A DNA stretch of 64,000 bases from a phage, in assembly GCA_018015315.1 (NCBI GenBank), contig GCA_018015315.1_3629.1. One strand, 5' to 3'. The notes beneath the pieces were generated by a model. It searched no databases. It was not told where the DNA came from and saw only the letters and a list, made by a program, of their open reading frames with translations. Shown here in pieces: positions 3,990-60,422 of the stretch (within the stretch, counting starts at the first letter, position 1; the number at the start of each line of letters is the position of its first letter). The position numbers and the translations under genes are program-made.

Positions 3990-5366
3990 TTATTCAGTCA
4001 TTGCAACAGCATTGGTGGATTTAGAACCAACTTTGTCCAGAAGGACGTTGATCCGGATACGAACGAAGTGCAGGGCGTTGTTATACACCAGTTCTACTTT
4101 CACACCTTCCAGAACACGAGCAGCCAACTGATTGGTTGGAATCTCTGCACGTTTAGGAACTGTGATGATCGGGTCGTAGAACACATTGTTGTCTTCGTCA
4201 AAACCTGTCAGGATCGCACCATTCTTAATGCCAGTGTTGATTGGGTTGTTCATCAGGACAGACTTGATAACCGGAAGATCATCATCAGACATCTTCATGC
4301 TTAAACCCATGTTGGAGCGACGATGCATGTACCCAAACATAGATTCTTCAGATCTGAACTTGATCCAGTGTGCAAAACGAATAGCGTCTGCATACTGACC
4401 TGAAGCACACTTACCTTCCCAGAAAGCACCAACACCGTTAATCATTCTGTAGAAGTTAACGTGGTTTTCCCAAATAGCCATACGCTGAGTTAAAGTCAGA
4501 GACGGTGCAATCACACCTGGCATCTGTTTTAAGTGCAAGCTGTCGCCGTAAGACGGATCGTTGGATGCCATAGCACCTATGATACCACCCTCCGGGAAGT
4601 CCTTATCTGCACGAGGATCGTACATGCCGACACTGTCATATTGTGCAGCTTTCAGTTTGGTGGCGATGTTATTATCTTTACCCGTCACATCTTCTGCAGT
4701 AGAGTAGACATGCAGCTTGTAGTTAGCCTGAGCCCACTTAGCACATGCTTCAATGTCGGTGTGGTCTTCATGGCACAGGAAGTACCAATTGTCACGCTCA
4801 GCATTGATCTTATCAACTACTGTAGAAGGTTTTTCAGCATTGGCGATATTTTTGATTGTATAGTTACCAGTATGGTAACCAACAGTACAGTCACCAGTGA
4901 TGGTGAGAACACCTTCAGAAGCCTCTACAGTGATATCGTCCAAGTTATCATCTGCTTCGATTTTAGTCTTCATTGACTCTGCAATCTGAGTTGCAGCTGT
5001 TCCACCAGAGATAGGGACTATCAAAGAGGTATTGTAGCTACCTTTTGCAATAGTCATTACGACATCGGTATCAGCTGCGGCAGCAATACCTTTAAAATCT
5101 ACAGTGGTCTTTTCTTTGGCCTGTCTGCCGATCATAACGTATTGTGGAGGGAATACACCACCAAAAGCTTTTGCTGCAAACTCATACGCTGCAGAGCCTT
5201 GTGCGAAACCATCTTCCACCATCTGATCCAGCTCTGCATATACGCGAGCTCGCTCAGTAAAGTTGTTGTGGATAGCGATGAACAGGGGAGTTTCGAAACC
5301 TACAGTGTCAATAGGCTGGGTTCCGAGGTTAACTGTAACATCTACCACTTTATCTAAATATGGCAT
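3990..5366 (-). CDS. contractile tail sheath protein
   Basis: 458 aa; size and position (before tube, chaperones, tape measure); strongly biased codon usage. Confidence 0.6.
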   Translation of the reverse strand: MPYLDKVVDVTVNLGTQPIDTVGFETPLFIAIHNNFTERARVYAELDQMVEDGFAQGSAAYEFAAKAFGGVFPPQYVMIGRQAKEKTTVDFKGIAAAADTDVVMTIAKGSYNTSLIVPISGGTAATQIAESMKTKIEADDNLDDITVEASEGVLTITGDCTVGYHTGNYTIKNIANAEKPSTVVDKINAERDNWYFLCHEDHTDIEACAKWAQANYKLHVYSTAEDVTGKDNNIATKLKAAQYDSVGMYDPRADKDFPEGGIIGAMASNDPSYGDSLHLKQMPGVIAPSLTLTQRMAIWENHVNFYRMINGVGAFWEGKCASGQYADAIRFAHWIKFRSEESMFGYMHRRSNMGLSMKMSDDDLPVIKSVLMNNPINTGIKNGAILTGFDEDNNVFYDPIITVPKRAEIPTNQLAARVLEGVKVELVYNNALHFVRIRINVLLDKVGSKSTNAVAMTE

Positions 5367-15782: not shown

Positions 15783-15859
15783 TGGTCTCCACGGAGTGAT
15801 TCGAACACTCGACCTCCTGATCCCAAATCAGGCGCTCTACCAAGCTGAGCTACGCGGAG
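15783..15859 (-). tRNA. tRNA-Pro (anticodon TGG)
   Basis: cloverleaf by eye: 7-bp acceptor stem (one G-T), anticodon loop TTTGGGA, T-loop TTCGAAT, encoded CCA. Confidence 0.8.
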
Positions 15860-15870
15860 TATTTACTATT

Positions 15871-15945
15871 TGGTGGCCCTGGGTGGAATTGAACCACCGT
15901 CTGGCGATTATGAGTCGCTTGCTTGAACCTTCCAGCTACAGGGCC
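15871..15945 (-). tRNA. tRNA-Met (anticodon CAT; initiator, elongator or Ile-lysidine not distinguishable)
   Basis: perfect 7-bp acceptor GGCCCTG/CAGGGCC, loop CTCATAA, T-loop TTCAATT, encoded CCA. Confidence 0.8.
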
Positions 15946-15946
15946 T

Positions 15947-16022
15947 TGGTGCTGATGGCAGGACTTGAACCTGCAACATATTGATTACAAATCAATTGCA
16001 CTACCAATTGTGCTACATCAGC
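15947..16022 (-). tRNA. tRNA-Thr (anticodon TGT)
   Basis: acceptor GCTGATG/CATCAGC, anticodon loop TTTGTAA, T-loop TTCAAGT, encoded CCA. Confidence 0.8.
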
Positions 16023-16029
16023 AAAAAGG

Positions 16030-16126
16030 TGCTAGGTGATGGAATCGAACCATCTATGTATTCAACGACTACCTCGTCTATTTTCAGGATTAAAAATCCT
16101 CGCCCTTGCCAAAGGGCTTACCTAGC
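16030..16126 (-). tRNA. atypical type-II tRNA-like gene (Leu-like scaffold, apparent anticodon TTT)
   Basis: perfect acceptor GCTAGGT/ACCTAGC, D-arm, perfect T-arm GATGG-TTCGATT-CCATC, discriminator A; anticodon hairpin AGGATTTTTAATCCT; about 30-nt variable region with GACGA/TCGTT hairpin; CCA not encoded. Confidence 0.45.
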
Positions 16127-16224
16127 TCAGTATGTTGACCATGTTGCTAGTCGGCGATGACGACTGTAACATTTGATAATCCGGTTCTGCTTCCGGCTTT
16201 CGCTTAATTACAAGGTCAACAATG

Positions 16225-16315
16225 TGGCAGAGGATAATGGAATCGAACCATCATCGAGTCATCCTCAACGGGACGGTTTTCAAGACCGCTTGAGCACCAT
16301 TGCTCCCTACCCTCT
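16225..16315 (-). tRNA. tRNA-Ser (anticodon TGA)
   Basis: type-II: acceptor AGAGGGT/ATCCTCT, anticodon loop CTTGAAA, about 20-nt variable arm, discriminator G, encoded CCA. Confidence 0.7.
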
Positions 16316-16432
16316 TTTATTATAAACAATACTGATAATGACACTGATTTTCGAGCAGTTAGTGACTAGTATAAACGACGATAAATACCAATGCCATTAT
16401 CTGTATGATTTATGCATCTAAAAATATAAATT

Positions 16433-16519
16433 TGGTGGGGAGTGGTGGAGTCGAACCACCCGAGTCGCAATGACAATAGATTTACAGTCTACACCGCTAC
16501 CTCTACGGGATAACTCCCC
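16433..16519 (-). tRNA. tRNA-Tyr (anticodon GTA)
   Basis: type-II: acceptor GGGGAGT/ACTCCCC, anticodon loop CTGTAAA, long variable arm, discriminator A, encoded CCA. Confidence 0.8.
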
Positions 16520-16523
16520 AATT

Positions 16524-16598
16524 TGGCACCCCGTACTGGACTCGAACCAGTGTCAACGGCTTAGAAGGCCGCTGCTTTATCCACTAAGCTAACAGGGC
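16524..16598 (-). tRNA. tRNA-Arg (anticodon TCT)
   Basis: anticodon stem-loop GCGGC-CTTCTAA-GCCGT, T-arm ACTGG-TTCGAGT-CCAGT, acceptor with two G-T pairs, encoded CCA. Confidence 0.75.
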
Positions 16599-24012: not shown

Positions 24013-25295
24013 TGCATCAAATCAAAACAACACTGTACGCACTGAACAAAGATGGCAGCTACCAACAGTGGAAAGTATTCACTGATGGCGAAAAGGTTAT
24101 CGTAGAGTTTGGCAAGCTTGACGGTAAATTGCAGTACAAAGAGACGGTATGCACACCTAAAAACGTAGGTCGTGCCAACGAGACTACAGCTGAGCAACAG
24201 GCCGAGCTTGAGGCTATCAGCAAGTGGGAAAAACAAGTCCGTCTGGGGTATGTTGAAAACATGGAAGATTGCGAGCAGGGTGTTGATCTTTTACCTATGC
24301 TGGTGCATGACTACCTGAAGCGTGGCAAGGCACTTAAATTACCTTGCTGGATCTTGCGTAAGTTAGATGGCCTTCGTCTGCTTGTTGTTTTCCAAAATGG
24401 TGAGCCTAAATTTATTTCCCGTGGTAATAAGTCCTACCCTATTCAAGGAAAGCTTTTAGAGCAACTTCGTTCTTTCCATTCTACCACTGGGATTAAACAA
24501 CTTGATGGGGAACTATACATTCATGGTCTTCCTTTGCAGAAAATAGTGTCTCTTGCTAAACGGTGGCGCACACAGGAAGAGATTCAGGCCGAGATCGATA
24601 AAGACTATGAGGCAGATAAAAAACGCCGTCATGCAGCAATTAAGGCAGGCTTATCAACATACAAAAACTTCAACAAGGTAGATATTCCTGTCGATGTTGA
24701 GCCTGTTCGTGATGATTTGCGTTACGGTGGGTACTGTAGCTACGATCTGGAGTATCACATTTTTGATATTCCTAGCGACAAGGTGTGGTGGGATCCAGAA
24801 ACAGAGTCTGGACGCTGCAAGGATCTTATGGATGCAGAGGATACCGTTACCACTCTGATGCTTGATCATATCAAGGTTGTTGACGCAGAGCTTGCGTACA
24901 CAGTTGATCATTGCGAAGAATCTGTTGGTATATTCATGTCCGAAGGATATGAAGGTACTATCATGCGTAATTTCTGCGGTAAATATGAGTATGGTCAGCG
25001 AACATCTGAAGCATTGAAATGGAAAAAGTTCAACGACGCAGAGGTGAAAGTTATTGACGTTGAGAAAGATAAGAATGATGAAGGTGTTCTTATCTGTGTT
25101 GACAAGGAAGGTGTTGTTGTTAAAATGAAGATGAAAGGCACGCACGAGGAGCGTAGCTATGACAGGATGCAGGAAATGATCGGCAAGTTTGTCACCTTCA
25201 AATACCAAGCAAGGACAGAAGACAACAACTACCAATTCCCTGTCGGTATCTGCGTCCGAAATGTTAACCCAGACACTTGGGAGGTGCTTGAATGA
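24012..25295 (+). CDS. ATP-dependent DNA ligase
   Basis: 427 aa; motif I KLDGLR (KxDGxR) and downstream ligase-like motifs. Confidence 0.8.
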   Translation: MHQIKTTLYALNKDGSYQQWKVFTDGEKVIVEFGKLDGKLQYKETVCTPKNVGRANETTAEQQAELEAISKWEKQVRLGYVENMEDCEQGVDLLPMLVHDYLKRGKALKLPCWILRKLDGLRLLVVFQNGEPKFISRGNKSYPIQGKLLEQLRSFHSTTGIKQLDGELYIHGLPLQKIVSLAKRWRTQEEIQAEIDKDYEADKKRRHAAIKAGLSTYKNFNKVDIPVDVEPVRDDLRYGGYCSYDLEYHIFDIPSDKVWWDPETESGRCKDLMDAEDTVTTLMLDHIKVVDAELAYTVDHCEESVGIFMSEGYEGTIMRNFCGKYEYGQRTSEALKWKKFNDAEVKVIDVEKDKNDEGVLICVDKEGVVVKMKMKGTHEERSYDRMQEMIGKFVTFKYQARTEDNNYQFPVGICVRNVNPDTWEVLE

Positions 25296-46720: not shown

Positions 46721-46954
46721 ATGAAAGTTAAATTTCTTACAGATTTAGGGTACCCTTCCTTGGTTGACTGCGTTGGTAAAATTGTGGAAGCAAAACGACT
46801 ATCTGCAAACGATAATGTTGTCATGGTTAAGGGAAAAGATTTACTATCTGCAGGTGCAGAGTCTGGCAGGATCTCTCCTGACTATACGTATTACCTGTCT
46901 TTAAGTAATCTACCAGAACGAGGCGGCAAAGGCCTTGAAGTTGTGGAGGAGTGA
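46721..46954 (+). CDS. small acidic protein, MKVK paralog family
   Basis: MKVKFL N-terminus, VKGKDLLSAGA core, C-terminal LEVVEE. Confidence 0.5.
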   Translation: MKVKFLTDLGYPSLVDCVGKIVEAKRLSANDNVVMVKGKDLLSAGAESGRISPDYTYYLSLSNLPERGGKGLEVVEE

Positions 46955-48988: not shown

Positions 48989-49272
48989 TCTGGATATCCT
49001 ATACTGATGGCACCATGCTGTATACTGCAGGTACCCGATATGAGGTTCAGGAGGACGATAAAAAATTTATCGTAAAAACATTTGACAAGGACGACAACCT
49101 TTTGCTAGAATTGACTTACAAGGTTGGAGAGGTATCCGATATCCAATTGGATTGTGGTCATAAAGATAATCCACTCAAAAAACCTGGAATAGGCAAGGCT
49201 TCAGAAGAACGTTTGTCTCGTATTGCAGAAAGCGTTTCTCCCCAAAAATCTAAGAAGAGGAGTAGAAAATGA
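48985..49272 (+). CDS. hypothetical protein
   Basis: 95 aa ORF. Confidence 0.4.
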   Translation: MIWISYTDGTMLYTAGTRYEVQEDDKKFIVKTFDKDDNLLLELTYKVGEVSDIQLDCGHKDNPLKKPGIGKASEERLSRIAESVSPQKSKKRSRK

Positions 49273-49969: not shown

Positions 49970-50251
49970 ATGAAAAAGATTTGCGATACAGATGTGGAGT
50001 TCAAGGTGTGTAGTAAGGAGACCTATTGGGAAGTGAGACAAAAGGTATATTTGTTTGGACTTATCCCATATTGGTCTAAATTCTACTGGGGAGCAGATGA
50101 ATTAGGGAGATATGCCACCAAAGCTATGGCGCTTATAGGTATAGCTGAATATATTGCTGCTAGGGACAGGGCTGGAAAAACCTGCTACTACACTGCTGAC
50201 GAGATTCGTAACAGTGTTTACGTCCCACAACCACCTGATGGAGACCGTTGA
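49970..50251 (+). CDS. hypothetical protein
   Basis: ATG after GAGGA RBS directly after upstream stop. Confidence 0.4.
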   Translation: MKKICDTDVEFKVCSKETYWEVRQKVYLFGLIPYWSKFYWGADELGRYATKAMALIGIAEYIAARDRAGKTCYYTADEIRNSVYVPQPPDGDR

Positions 50252-50475
50252 TGAAAGTTAAAGTTTTAGATTCAAGCTTCTATATTGGTCAGGAGCCTTT
50301 AGTAGGGAAAGTGTTTACTGCTGTCCCTAACGAAGATTACCCTGACCTTTTAAAAATAAAAGGGGCAGATCTTATTGCCGCTGGTGCATCTCAGGACTGC
50401 TTTGACAGCCAGTGGGACTACAACTTTGCCCTAGGTGAGGATGTAGAGATAGTGGAGGACGATCATGAAGGTTAA
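50248..50475 (+). CDS. small acidic protein, MKVK paralog family
   Basis: MKVKVLDSSFYIGQ, IKGADLIAAGA, C-terminal VEIVEDD. Confidence 0.5.
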   Translation: MMKVKVLDSSFYIGQEPLVGKVFTAVPNEDYPDLLKIKGADLIAAGASQDCFDSQWDYNFALGEDVEIVEDDHEG

Positions 50476-50719
50476 AATTCTTGATTCTAACGTCTACTTG
50501 GGGCAATCCTTCCTGAAAGGAAAGGTCGTCCCTGCGGTATACTTTGAAGGGTTGCCGTGGGATGATCCTGTGCGGCAACATCACAGTTATGTAGGCCACA
50601 ACGTGGTGTTTATTTTAGGATCAGACCTGATCACCGCTGGTGCACCTGAATATTATTTCGGGGAAGAGTCCTATTATGCCTTTGGGGTAGGGTCAGATGC
50701 AGATATTGTAGAGCTGTGA
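50465..50719 (+). CDS. small acidic protein, MKVK paralog family
   Basis: MKVKILDSNVYLGQ, ILGSDLITAGA, C-terminal DIVEL. Confidence 0.5.
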   Translation: MKVKILDSNVYLGQSFLKGKVVPAVYFEGLPWDDPVRQHHSYVGHNVVFILGSDLITAGAPEYYFGEESYYAFGVGSDADIVEL

Positions 50720-50731
50720 TGGGTAACCGTT

Positions 50732-51130
50732 GTGAAAAATAAACTGTTCAAAGTTACAATGAAAATTCGCGGAGCTTGGAGCGTAAAGCAAGGGCGTATC
50801 CCAGAATTTGAGAAAGACTTCTACGTAGTCTCCACCTCGGAGGAGGCTGCATGCTGGCAGGCTGGCTATGCCTATGCAAGAACCTGGTACGAAGGATACC
50901 AGACTGGGGGCTATGACGGAGAAATTGTCAGCAAGGGTGTAGAAGAAATTAATGTGTTGACAAGTGAAAAAGTTTTTGTTATAGTGCATCCAGATTCCAG
51001 AGTGAAGCATTACTGGAATGCCAGAACAAAAACTTGGACACCGTTTGCAGATTCTGCTACTCCACTTTTAAACCAGAAAGCTCTTGACTCTGCCCCAAGT
51101 TATGGGGTTGTTGAAGAAAAGCTAAACTGA
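50732..51130 (+). CDS. hypothetical protein (paralog of 52941-53336)
   Basis: shared segment HPDS..YWN..WTPF with 52941-53336 product. Confidence 0.45.
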   Translation: MKNKLFKVTMKIRGAWSVKQGRIPEFEKDFYVVSTSEEAACWQAGYAYARTWYEGYQTGGYDGEIVSKGVEEINVLTSEKVFVIVHPDSRVKHYWNARTKTWTPFADSATPLLNQKALDSAPSYGVVEEKLN

Positions 51131-51147: not shown

Positions 51148-51438
51148 ATGATGGATTTAATTCTAAATATTGATAACGCAGGAGAGTTTAAAGACGATGG
51201 TGTAACAAGCATGGACAAACCCTGCTCTGCTAAGGTTGACTCAAAATGGACCTATAAGTTTGATGGAGAGATCTTCGCAAATGATGAGAAGGTTGTAGAT
51301 GCTGCAGCCATTTTGAACGCTCTAGGTTACGACCCTGTGAATTCTTTGATCAAGGATCCTGTTGAGTTTGCGGAGTATGTTCGAAAAATGGCAGATCTTG
51401 CTGTAGATATTTTAAAAACTATCGACAACAAGCTATAA
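51148..51438 (+). CDS. hypothetical protein
   Basis: 96 aa; GAGGTG RBS. Confidence 0.4.
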   Translation: MMDLILNIDNAGEFKDDGVTSMDKPCSAKVDSKWTYKFDGEIFANDEKVVDAAAILNALGYDPVNSLIKDPVEFAEYVRKMADLAVDILKTIDNKL

Positions 51439-51443
51439 AACTG

Positions 51444-51472
51444 TTGACACAATGCTTCAGCTATAGTATTAT
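51444..51472 (+). promoter_or_regulatory. sigma70-like promoter upstream of hpf-like gene
   Basis: TTGACA-17 bp-TATTAT, then leader hairpin AGAGAGA..TCTCTCT and AAAGGAG RBS. Confidence 0.5.
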
Positions 51473-51524
51473 TGTTTTCAAAGAGAGATGGTTGTTACTC
51501 TCTCTTCCTTAAAAGGAGCACGTT

Positions 51525-51842
51525 ATGCAAATTGAAATCACTGGCAACGTAGAAATCACTGAAGGTATGGTGTCTTTCATTTCCCACAAAATGTCTAAGC
51601 TGGAGCGTTTGCACCCATCTGCCAACTATGCACGTGTGAGTGTAAAAGTTGAAAATGATCACCAGGAAGTCATGGCGTTCATTTTTGACACTTCCGGAAA
51701 AGAAGTTATTGCCAAAGCTAAAGGCAGTGACGCTTACGAGGCAACTGACCGTATGGTAGATGTTGCAGCACGTCAGTTGGCTAAATGCGGTGGAAAGAAA
51801 GGTAAAGGGAAAGGCAAAGTAAAGATTGACTTTGGAGAATGA
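51525..51842 (+). CDS. hpf: ribosome hibernation promoting factor / RaiA-family homolog
   Basis: MQIEITGNVEITEGM closely matches E. coli HPF N-terminus MQLNITGNNVEITEA (from memory); about 100 aa; basic Gly/Lys tail. Confidence 0.7.
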   Translation: MQIEITGNVEITEGMVSFISHKMSKLERLHPSANYARVSVKVENDHQEVMAFIFDTSGKEVIAKAKGSDAYEATDRMVDVAARQLAKCGGKKGKGKGKVKIDFGE

Positions 51843-51979
51843 GGTGCTACAATGGGCGTGATTAAGAAATTAGTCCCAAATGTAGAGATTGCATGCTTTG
51901 AAATTATGTTTGCAATCGCAGTTGTAGTTAATGTGTTAGGTTACGGCTATTAATATCAAATAATTGAGGAGACCTCTAA

Positions 51980-52249
51980 ATGAAAATTAAATTATTCAAA
52001 ACTGAGCTGGCAGACAAAAACTGTGGACTGGTTGAAGGCATGATTGTTGAAGCACAACCAGTGGACTATATGAAAGTGGTTCGTGATGCCCTGGGTGAAG
52101 GTTTTGATCTGATGGAGCCAGCTCTGCGCGAAGATGTTATCGAGATGGCTAAAAAGCACACACCTGAAGGTTTGGTGGTGTTTGTTGCACCGGGTAACGG
52201 AGAAGAGTTGATTGTAACTCCTGATGTGTATGAGATTGTAGAGGAATAA
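51980..52249 (+). CDS. small acidic protein, paralog family (YEIVEE tail)
   Basis: MKIKLFK N-terminus, C-terminal PDVYEIVEE. Confidence 0.45.
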   Translation: MKIKLFKTELADKNCGLVEGMIVEAQPVDYMKVVRDALGEGFDLMEPALREDVIEMAKKHTPEGLVVFVAPGNGEELIVTPDVYEIVEE

Positions 52250-52608: not shown

Positions 52609-52941
52609 ATGAAAGTACGCTTTATTGGTGAAACAATTCCTGTGCATCTCCGGTCGCCTGAAGATTCTGCAGATCTTGCATCTCAGAAGGCGAGAGGTTA
52701 TGATAAGAAAGTAATCTCAACCGATGTAGAACTTGAGGCTACTAGTCTACCTGACCCTGCTGCATTCTTTAATCATTATGGATACTATTTCAGCAATCTG
52801 ATGAATATCGGTGAGCTTGTGTTTATTAGTGGTGGAGAAATTGTTAGCAAGCTTGGCGGCGATCCGGATGTCTTTCATGAAACCTGTCCTTTTGCATTTG
52901 TGGTAGGTTCAGATGTGGAAGTTATTGAGGAGGTGCGGTAA
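52609..52941 (+). CDS. small acidic protein, MKVK paralog family
   Basis: MKVRFIGE, VVGSDVEVIEE tail; internal ATG chosen. Confidence 0.45.
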   Translation: MKVRFIGETIPVHLRSPEDSADLASQKARGYDKKVISTDVELEATSLPDPAAFFNHYGYYFSNLMNIGELVFISGGEIVSKLGGDPDVFHETCPFAFVVGSDVEVIEEVR

Positions 52942-53336
52942 TGGTAAGACTATACCGTGTTGAGTATAGCTCAGATACTGTATACAATGTAAGAAGCAAA
53001 GATCGCAGCGACAGAGTGCAAGAAATGTATGTTCTTGCCGACAGTCCGTTATCTGCAGCGTTCAAGGCAGGGTCTCTTGCATCTCGTTGGAAATTTGAAG
53101 GTGGATCTTTCTATGAAGAAACCCTTGAAGATTCTGTTGTTATTTCTTCTGCAGAGGTTTCAGATGACTACGAAGGGAAAAAGTTCGTAATGCGGCACCC
53201 ACACAGCAACATTGCGTACTACTGGGATGTTCTGAACAACGAGTGGACCCCAGATCTTCAGAAGGCCACTGTGCTAACACCGTTTTTGGCAGATAAGTTT
53301 CCACCAGAAGGTAATTTATCCGCACTGTTTCAGTAA
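52941..53336 (+). CDS. hypothetical protein (paralog of 50732-51130)
   Basis: RHPHS..YYWD..WTPD segment shared with 50732-51130. Confidence 0.45.
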   Translation: MVRLYRVEYSSDTVYNVRSKDRSDRVQEMYVLADSPLSAAFKAGSLASRWKFEGGSFYEETLEDSVVISSAEVSDDYEGKKFVMRHPHSNIAYYWDVLNNEWTPDLQKATVLTPFLADKFPPEGNLSALFQ

Positions 53337-53354: not shown

Positions 53355-53383
53355 TTGACAACGCCAACCCTGTGTGAAATAAT
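53355..53383 (+). promoter_or_regulatory. sigma70-like promoter (weak -10)
   Basis: TTGACA-17 bp-AATAAT. Confidence 0.35.
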
Positions 53384-60393: not shown

Positions 60394-60422
60394 AATATAG
60401 CAAAACTGCCGATCCCTGTCAA
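60394..60422 (-). promoter_or_regulatory. sigma70-like promoter
   Basis: minus-strand TTGACA-17 bp-TATATT. Confidence 0.5.

Follow-up and report, generated by a model that had tools for sequence, protein, structure and literature searches.

The stretch of phage DNA analysed here (64,000 nucleotides, contig GCA_018015315.1_3629.1 of NCBI GenBank assembly GCA_018015315.1; called the window in what follows) carries at 51525-51842 on the plus strand a gene for a 105-residue protein of the HPF/RaiA family of ribosome hibernation factors, preceded by a near-consensus promoter and a leader hairpin. The product, a genuine family member nearest to the short HPFs, would be expressed early from a sigma-70 promoter and would hold idle host ribosomes in a protected, reactivatable 70S state; we give this reading a probability of roughly 0.6. 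Phage proteins that associate with ribosomes matter because through them viruses directly tune the translation machinery of their hosts.

The coding sequence, which belongs to the Ribosomal_S30AE family, starts with ATG, its product begins with MQIEITGNVEITEGM, and it is the ortholog of rV5 ORF144 (ABI79209). An earlier note, made from the letters alone, had pointed to this 105-residue open reading frame (ORF) and its ribosome-binding site (RBS), both of which are present, and had pointed out a likeness of the N-terminus to E. coli HPF. This likeness is real: 37 of 88 residues are identical (42%), and the two proteins have an N-terminus of the form MQ(L/I)xITGN(N)VEITE in common. The note had named alignment to the family as a check, and both general family models score above their curated thresholds, namely Pfam PF02482 (Ribosomal_S30AE; E = 1.9e-12, 48.2 bits against a gathering threshold of 23.7, covering profile positions 1-83 of 88) and NCBIfam TIGR00741 (HPF/YfiA; 46.7 bits against a cut-off of 40.9). 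PF02482 is the only Pfam domain in the protein, which has no C-terminal dimerisation domain of the kind found in long HPFs of about 180-190 residues. In PHROGs the protein has a family of its own, phrog_12469, whose label is 'unknown function', and it matches phrog_8990 ('sigma 54 modulation protein/ribosomal protein S30EA') less strongly, at E = 1.9e-6. 'Sigma 54 modulation' is the historical label of the yhbH/hpf family, and a role connected with sigma-54 was rejected, as the family models name the protein a ribosome hibernation factor.

Structural comparisons lead to the same family. When solved structures are searched by sequence, chains of E. coli HPF are the best matches (E ~1e-11, residues 1-89). 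The AlphaFold2 model has a mean predicted local distance difference test score (pLDDT) of 83.7 and the predicted elements E2-7, H13-29, E33-42, E47-55, E60-67 and H70-89 (E, strand; H, helix). Foldseek ranks only hibernation factors among its 35 best PDB matches, led by V. cholerae HPF (4hei), which the model overlays with a root-mean-square deviation (rmsd) of 1.1 A, and by the E. coli HPF of the 100S particle (6h4n_x; 1.2 A); Staufen and the double-stranded RNA-binding domains (dsRBDs) of Dicer partners are among the weak matches. Since profile scores, matches to E. coli HPF and fold overlays agree, the protein is a member of the HPF/RaiA superfamily. Within it, as judged from sequence, it is nearest to the short HPFs, is an equivalog of neither HPF nor RaiA, and is not a long HPF.

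The two E. coli paralogs help to place it. With the short HPF (YhbH; PDB 2rql, 4v8h, 6h4n) it shares the fold and a similar length, and the residues K26, D75, R83, K87 and K91 (E. coli numbering) are common to both; in contrast, the phage protein lacks Arg33, His55, Lys80, Lys89, Lys93 and His95, and its Gly/Lys-rich tail is 10 residues longer. With RaiA (YfiA, protein Y; PDB 1n3g, 4v8i) it shares the fold, the family of binding sites and a C-terminal extension past helix alpha-2, but only 22% of residues are identical and the tail of RaiA is net acidic.

With at least 80% of the query covered, 117 phage records match the HPF region at 96-98.5% identity; all are Vequintavirus (rV5, FV3, Murica, BASEL phages and others), and the window itself is, by this nucleotide identity, an rV5-like Vequintavirus. 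Translated searches (tblastn) find the protein, at more than 95% identity, in 118 Vequintavirus records; no phage of any other group gave a match at E <= 1e-3. Each of the 119 phage records that match spans at least 80% of its length. In rV5 it is the same gene in the same synteny, with flanking DNA 96.8% identical and a protein that differs in carrying N56 in place of T56. A word-indexed protein search returned five proteins, the rV5 protein cluster P0001 being 99% identical, and an exhaustive HMMER search among 1.84 billion representatives gave 27 proteins at E <= 1e-3, one of which (P0006, 1160 residues and repetitive) was discarded as spurious. The nearest cellular proteins are gammaproteobacterial short HPFs, at no more than 44% identity.

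The best relative in the HMMER search, P0004, is a protein of 103 residues with about 64-65% identity, whose gene is syntenic and lies in contigs of 124-126 kb (the longest on record has 136,793 bases). The DNA of these contigs matches Vequintavirus at about 73-76% identity over one third of an 8-kb region, and because it has diverged so far, P0004 marks an uncultured sister lineage. Its gene holds the same genomic position, and capture predates the split: a myovirus ancestor would have acquired the gene before Vequintavirus and the sister lineage separated, and its descendants would have kept it under strong purifying selection. Other large myoviruses have captured the family independently; the S30AE proteins of Cronobacter phage GAP32, of the Xanthomonas jumbo phage XaC1 and of PHROG 8990 are not orthologs of the Vequintavirus HPF, and the GAP32 protein has been placed near Firmicutes sequences (Mizuno et al. 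2019).

Substitution rates bear out that the gene has been maintained. Within the genus, synonymous divergence (dS) is 0.05-0.68 and nonsynonymous divergence (dN) 0.004-0.033, with pairwise dN/dS of about 0.03-0.17 and below 0.1 except for the closest pair; comparison with the ortholog of the sister lineage gives saturated synonymous sites and a dN of 0.31. By these values the phage HPF gene is under strong purifying selection, and dN/dS led us to reject a decaying pseudogene or passenger. Such selection across a genus of E. coli phages that are candidates for therapy means that the protein should be useful, possibly in slow-growing or stationary hosts, which is where phage therapy tends to fail.

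Which parts of the ribosome-binding surface have been kept? In HPF and RaiA, the strictly conserved basic residues Lys80, Arg83, Lys87, Lys89 and Lys91 of helix alpha-2 make identical rRNA contacts (bioRxiv 10.1101/2025.10.07.680626), with Arg83 contacting m4Cm1402 in the cryo-EM literature (the same preprint; Beckert et al. 2018). Further contacts involve Lys26 and Gln29 near m3U1498, His55 and Glu60 at the C-terminus of uS9, and Asp75 (bioRxiv 10.1101/2025.10.07.680626), while Arg33 and Lys93 contact E-site tRNA and His95 stacks on G693 (Beckert et al. 2018). Four of these residues are retained in the window protein and the sister lineage alike, as K25 (for Lys26), D75, R83 and K87. Glu60 is kept as E60 in the window and is V60 in the sister protein; Lys91 is kept as K91 in the window, with S91 flanked by K90 and K92 in the sister. 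Gln29 has become R28 and His55 has become F54 in both. Of the five strictly conserved basic positions in helix alpha-2, the window protein thus retains three and the sister lineage two.

Beyond the folded core (residues 1-89, 51525-51791 on the plus strand; pLDDT about 79-95) follows a Gly/Lys-rich tail that is predicted to be disordered (codons 90-105, GKKGKGKGKVKIDFGE, at 51792-51839 on the same strand); residues 91-105 have pLDDT values below 50. Counted from position 89, residues 89-105 read GGKKGKGKGKVKIDFGE, that is, 17 residues past position 88 with a net charge of +4, which agrees with the basic tail that the earlier note had described. Past the same position E. coli HPF has 7 residues, with a net charge of +2, and RaiA has 25, with -3. 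The phage protein as a whole is basic too, with an isoelectric point of 8.7 compared with 6.5 for E. coli HPF. In both phage lineages the tail is basic and its sequence is not conserved, and frameshifts alter it in APECc02 (101 residues) and Murica (99 residues).

The promoter is of the sigma-70 type and lies at 51439-51472 on the plus strand, comprising an AACTG block, the -35 hexamer TTGACA (51444-51449), a 17-nt spacer and the -10 hexamer TATTAT (51467-51472). It matches 11 of the 12 consensus positions. Sites of this quality (at least 11/12) are strongly enriched across the 64 kb of the window, with 14 occurrences against a mean of 1.66 and a maximum of 7 in 100 dinucleotide-preserving shuffles, so that sites this near to the consensus are not a product of chance in the window. 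Along the same lines, the extended motif AACTGTTGACA occurs 11 times with at most one mismatch, 2.0 occurrences being expected; loose matches in a general promoter scan of 48-56 kb show no excess (18 against 17.1 expected). All 11 leaders compared, ten of them from Vequintavirus and one from the divergent locus L002 of the sister lineage, carry the 13-nt block AAACTGTTGACAC unchanged, and the -10 hexamer is TAT(T/C)AT within the genus. The rest of the HPF intergenic region does not align with the sister lineage, and this identity of the block amid DNA that fails to align argues that the promoter is functional. The private promoter of the earlier note therefore stands, and the rV5 GenBank record (DQ832317) already carries it as 'Sigma70-type promoter; P144'. 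Transcription would start at about 51479-51480, some 7 nt past the -10 hexamer. The Shine-Dalgarno sequence AAGGAG, as read from the letters, lies at 51513-51518 on the plus strand, 6 nt 5' of the ATG, and AAAAGGA around the RBS is kept in all ten Vequintavirus leaders.

Other near-consensus promoters (at least 11/12) occur at 25099, 26913, 35007, 42273, 43666, 49082, 50957, 53355 and 57461 on the plus strand and at 60422, 20237, 17090 and 3416 on the minus strand. Many of the near-consensus promoters of the window have CTG or GTG immediately before TTGACA, and those at 49082 and 50957 are located within ORFs. In L002, AAACTGTTTACA and a hairpin, ctgtagtacactacag, precede the gene downstream of HPF at 4300-4400, where the hairpin overlaps the likely -10 region; the promoter context AAACTGTT(G/T)ACA thus serves another gene in that locus.

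Between promoter and RBS lies a hairpin at 51482-51505 on the plus strand, with a 7-bp stem and a 10-nt loop (AGAGAGA at 51482-51488 pairs with UCUCUCU at 51499-51505). Given the start site proposed above, about 2 nt of the mRNA would precede it. The 49-nt leader folds with -11.4 kcal/mol (z = -1.4), and 10 of 200 shuffled sequences fold equally well; an Rfam search of 51300-52000 at E <= 1 returned no match for it. The stem, AAGAGAG/CTCTCTT in the window, is AAGAGGG/CCCTCTT in rV5, FV3, nom, APECc02 and Aya, which amounts to one compensatory change from A-U to G-C, and in rV5 the loop is longer as well. In V18, Murica, nomo and A142 the stem has an A.C mismatch and folds more weakly (-5.3 to -7 kcal/mol). 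The leader of the sister lineage in L002 is 27 nt shorter and has no hairpin, which makes the hairpin dispensable. The structure that the earlier note had seen in the 5' untranslated region is thus real and mildly conserved, but statistically weak. What is generally known of 5' stem-loops and RNase E suggests a 5'-terminal stabiliser of the mRNA as its most economical role, and transcript stabilisation would be the most that it contributes. A function as intrinsic terminator of the upstream gene was rejected: the hairpin lies downstream of the promoter, no run of T follows it, and the terminator scan did not report it.

The earlier note had presented the gene as if it were new, and here it was wrong. 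It has been annotated since the 2000s: in the rV5 GenBank record it is ORF144, 'sigma 54 modulation factor', and later records give HPF, RaiA or ribosome hibernation factor as its name. In 2019, Mizuno et al. (Nat Commun 10:752) counted the rV5 protein ABI79209, along with five related ones from phages, as virus-encoded HPFs and placed them among gammaproteobacterial sequences. They proposed that competition of a viral HPF with the cellular one might prevent ribosome dimers, and performed a first biochemical test; on the HPF of rV5-like phages and hibernation in Vequintavirus we found no later literature. As gene, name, family, promoter and first functional test are all public, the finding was already known and the present analysis adds detail rather than a discovery. 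What is newly added is how strong selection is, which rRNA-contact residues are kept, that the Gly/Lys tail varies, that the hairpin is dispensable and that no RMF homolog was found in the window. The residual interest lies in the role that a strongly conserved viral HPF with a Gly/Lys tail and without Lys80 plays in infection.

Annotation of this gene is uneven in the databases. In several records, OR062525, OR062530, MT884009 and MT884011 among them, the HPF gene is mislabelled 'ATP-dependent protease La type I'. In APCEc02, nomo and nom (KR698074, MN850578, MN850646) the label 'sigma 54 modulation factor' has been copied to an unrelated downstream gene, the homolog of rV5 ORF146.

How would such a protein act? 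The earlier note had suggested that a phage copy could silence or protect host ribosomes. Mechanism and 30S binding, argued here from homology to the cellular factors, most likely follow theirs. Because the promoter is close to the consensus of the host, sigma-70 RNA polymerase of the host would transcribe the gene as soon as infection begins, and the gene would lead a small operon in an early block of small genes. The folded core would then occupy the channel between head and body of the 30S subunit in vacant ribosomes, over the positions of A- and P-site tRNA and mRNA, and the Gly/Lys tail may follow the path of the mRNA in the direction of E site and platform. While host mRNA disappears, idle ribosomes would in this way be shielded from ribonucleases and from the 100S dimers driven by host RMF and HPF. 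We favour a protective, 70S-holding role because cellular hibernation factors are reported to block ribonuclease attack on ribosomes, examples being Prossliner et al. 2021 (PMC7913689) and work on S. aureus HPF and RNase R (PMC8406268).

Several observations count against a protein that protects ribosomes in the manner of its cellular relatives. Both equivalog models stay below threshold, PRK10470 for HPF, although the best-scoring subfamily, with 55 bits against a cut-off of 125 and PRK10324 for RaiA with 18.7 bits against 158. Among the contact residues, strictly conserved Lys80 is lost in both phage lineages (V80 in the window, T80 in the sister), and so are Lys89 (G89 and S89), Arg33 (S32 and T32), Lys93 (G93 in both) and His95 (G95 and D95). 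When rV5 HPF was expressed from pBAD24 in E. coli NM522, its peptides were detected in the crude extract, purified 70S and 100S ribosomes yielded no such peptide, and the share of 100S particles was unchanged (Mizuno et al. 2019), in contrast to E. coli HPF, which works with RMF to turn 70S into 100S particles. Finally, our literature search found no transcriptome of an rV5-like phage, no expression timing and no infection phenotype.

The weight of the biochemical result depends on its conditions. The ribosomes came from cells harvested at an OD600 (optical density at 600 nm) of 1 and had been pelleted through 0.5 M NH4Cl. The authors, who regarded the outcome as inconclusive, offered the wrong growth phase, stripping by salt and a genuine loss of binding as possible reasons (Mizuno et al. 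2019). In the literature that we searched, no explicit statement was found that high salt strips HPF, so this caveat rests on that paper. It is, however, field practice to detect RMF, HPF and RaiA in low-salt 'crude ribosomes' and to prepare 'high-salt-washed ribosomes' separately.

An alternative that takes these differences at face value, and that we consider unlikely, is an anti-hibernation decoy as proposed by Mizuno et al. (2019): the phage protein would compete with host HPF and RaiA for their site, bind less tightly, or block the RMF site with its tail in the manner of RaiA, and in slow-growing or stationary cells ribosomes would escape the 100S state and stay usable by phage mRNAs. Binding that is weaker and reversible would be in keeping with the loss of Lys80 and Lys89, and the length of the tail, 17 residues past position 88, lies between those of HPF and RaiA; the RaiA tail reportedly points at the RMF site (bioRxiv 10.1101/2025.10.07.680626). 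A tblastn search of the window with E. coli RMF found no RMF homolog either, the best match having E = 2.6. Yet ectopic expression left the small 100S fraction unchanged, if in cells at an OD600 of 1 and not in stationary phase; the phage tail is basic, unlike the acidic end of the RaiA tail; it is frameshifted in at least two phages; and the HMM (hidden Markov model) scores given above favour HPF over RaiA. A related and speculative version would have the protein as a phage-adapted HPF that, having lost Lys80 and gained the tail, binds 70S monomers reversibly and acts as an anti-hibernation and ribosome-shielding factor for starved cells. The tail might then fill the mRNA-exit and anti-Shine-Dalgarno region, so that host RMF could no longer drive 100S formation, and ribonucleases and ribosome-targeting defence toxins might be kept from the decoding centre. 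If this were true, the phage could replicate in starved cells.

More remote is the idea that the protein has taken on a new function, in which ribosome binding has been lost and the dsRBD-like fold now recognises another structured RNA or a protein, of phage or host. It would account for the absence of peptides from purified ribosome fractions (Mizuno et al. 2019), and the loss of Lys80 in both lineages, the low identity to cellular HPFs with only 27 relatives in the exhaustive search, the loops DHQEV, FD.SGK and KAKG that both phage lineages share and cellular HPFs do not, and the weak Foldseek matches to dsRBDs all point the same way. We nevertheless think it quite improbable, given that R83, K87, K25 and D75 are retained, that the first 20 residues are nearly identical to cellular HPF, that the core overlays the ribosome-bound form at 1.2 A, and that the negative binding result came after the 0.5 M NH4Cl wash. 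Simple translation shut-off, in which the decoding centre of free 30S and 70S particles would be blocked early and the synthesis of host proteins, including those of defence, depressed, is a less likely benefit than protection and by itself very unlikely to be the explanation. Cellular HPF and RaiA do occlude the positions of mRNA and of A- and P-site tRNA (Beckert et al. 2018), and the early-type sigma-70 promoter and strong RBS of the gene would suit this role; but such a block does not discriminate and would inhibit phage mRNAs as well. The expressing cultures, moreover, grown overnight and then to the end of the exponential phase, reached an OD600 of 1 with normal ribosome profiles and no growth defect described (Mizuno et al. 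2019).

The surroundings of the gene are compact. The stop codon of the preceding gene (51148-51438) lies directly before the HPF promoter region, and 9 nt past the HPF gene starts a hydrophobic ORF of 33 codons (51852-51953, plus strand; rV5 ORF145), which is annotated in rV5, FV3, V18, Murica, nomo and nom and gave nothing significant in a Pfam scan (one meaningless match of 13.5 bits). The terminator scan found no terminator-like site between the HPF gene and this ORF or the small ORFs that follow, and the 33-residue ORF is probably co-transcribed with the HPF gene from P144. The next strong promoter past the HPF gene is at 53355-53383 (rV5 P150). Within the last HPF codons, at 51826-51853 on the plus strand, TTGACT-16-TACAAT with a TG upstream forms another promoter-like site (10/12), which could serve only genes further downstream since its -10 hexamer overlaps the ATG of the 33-residue ORF.

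No significant family was found in a Pfam scan of ten ORFs neighbouring the HPF gene. The small early ORFs in this region include paralog families: those at 50248-50475 and 50465-50719 are 41% identical (E = 3e-14) and are more distant kin of 46721-46954, and an ORF of 132 codons at 50732-51130 is 27% identical (E = 3e-10) to one of 131 codons at 52941-53336. For these paralogs (46721, 50248, 50465, 50732 and 52941) Pfam gave no match.

Two observations concern the genus and the window at large. Eighteen records marked UNVERIFIED and titled 'Campylobacter phage' (MG065635-MG065690, L011 being one of them) are genomes of Vequintavirus that share about 96% identity with the E. coli phages in the region studied here, which suggests mislabelled hosts or contamination. 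Inside a tRNA cluster at 15783-16598 lies a tRNA-like gene of 97-99 nt (16028-16126, minus strand), which ARAGORN reports as 'tRNA-???' with the four-base anticodon atcc and which scores 37.5 bits with the Rfam tRNA model against a gathering threshold of 29. It is kept in 125 Vequintavirus records, where it is labelled variously as tRNA-Lys, as tRNA-OTHER or not at all.

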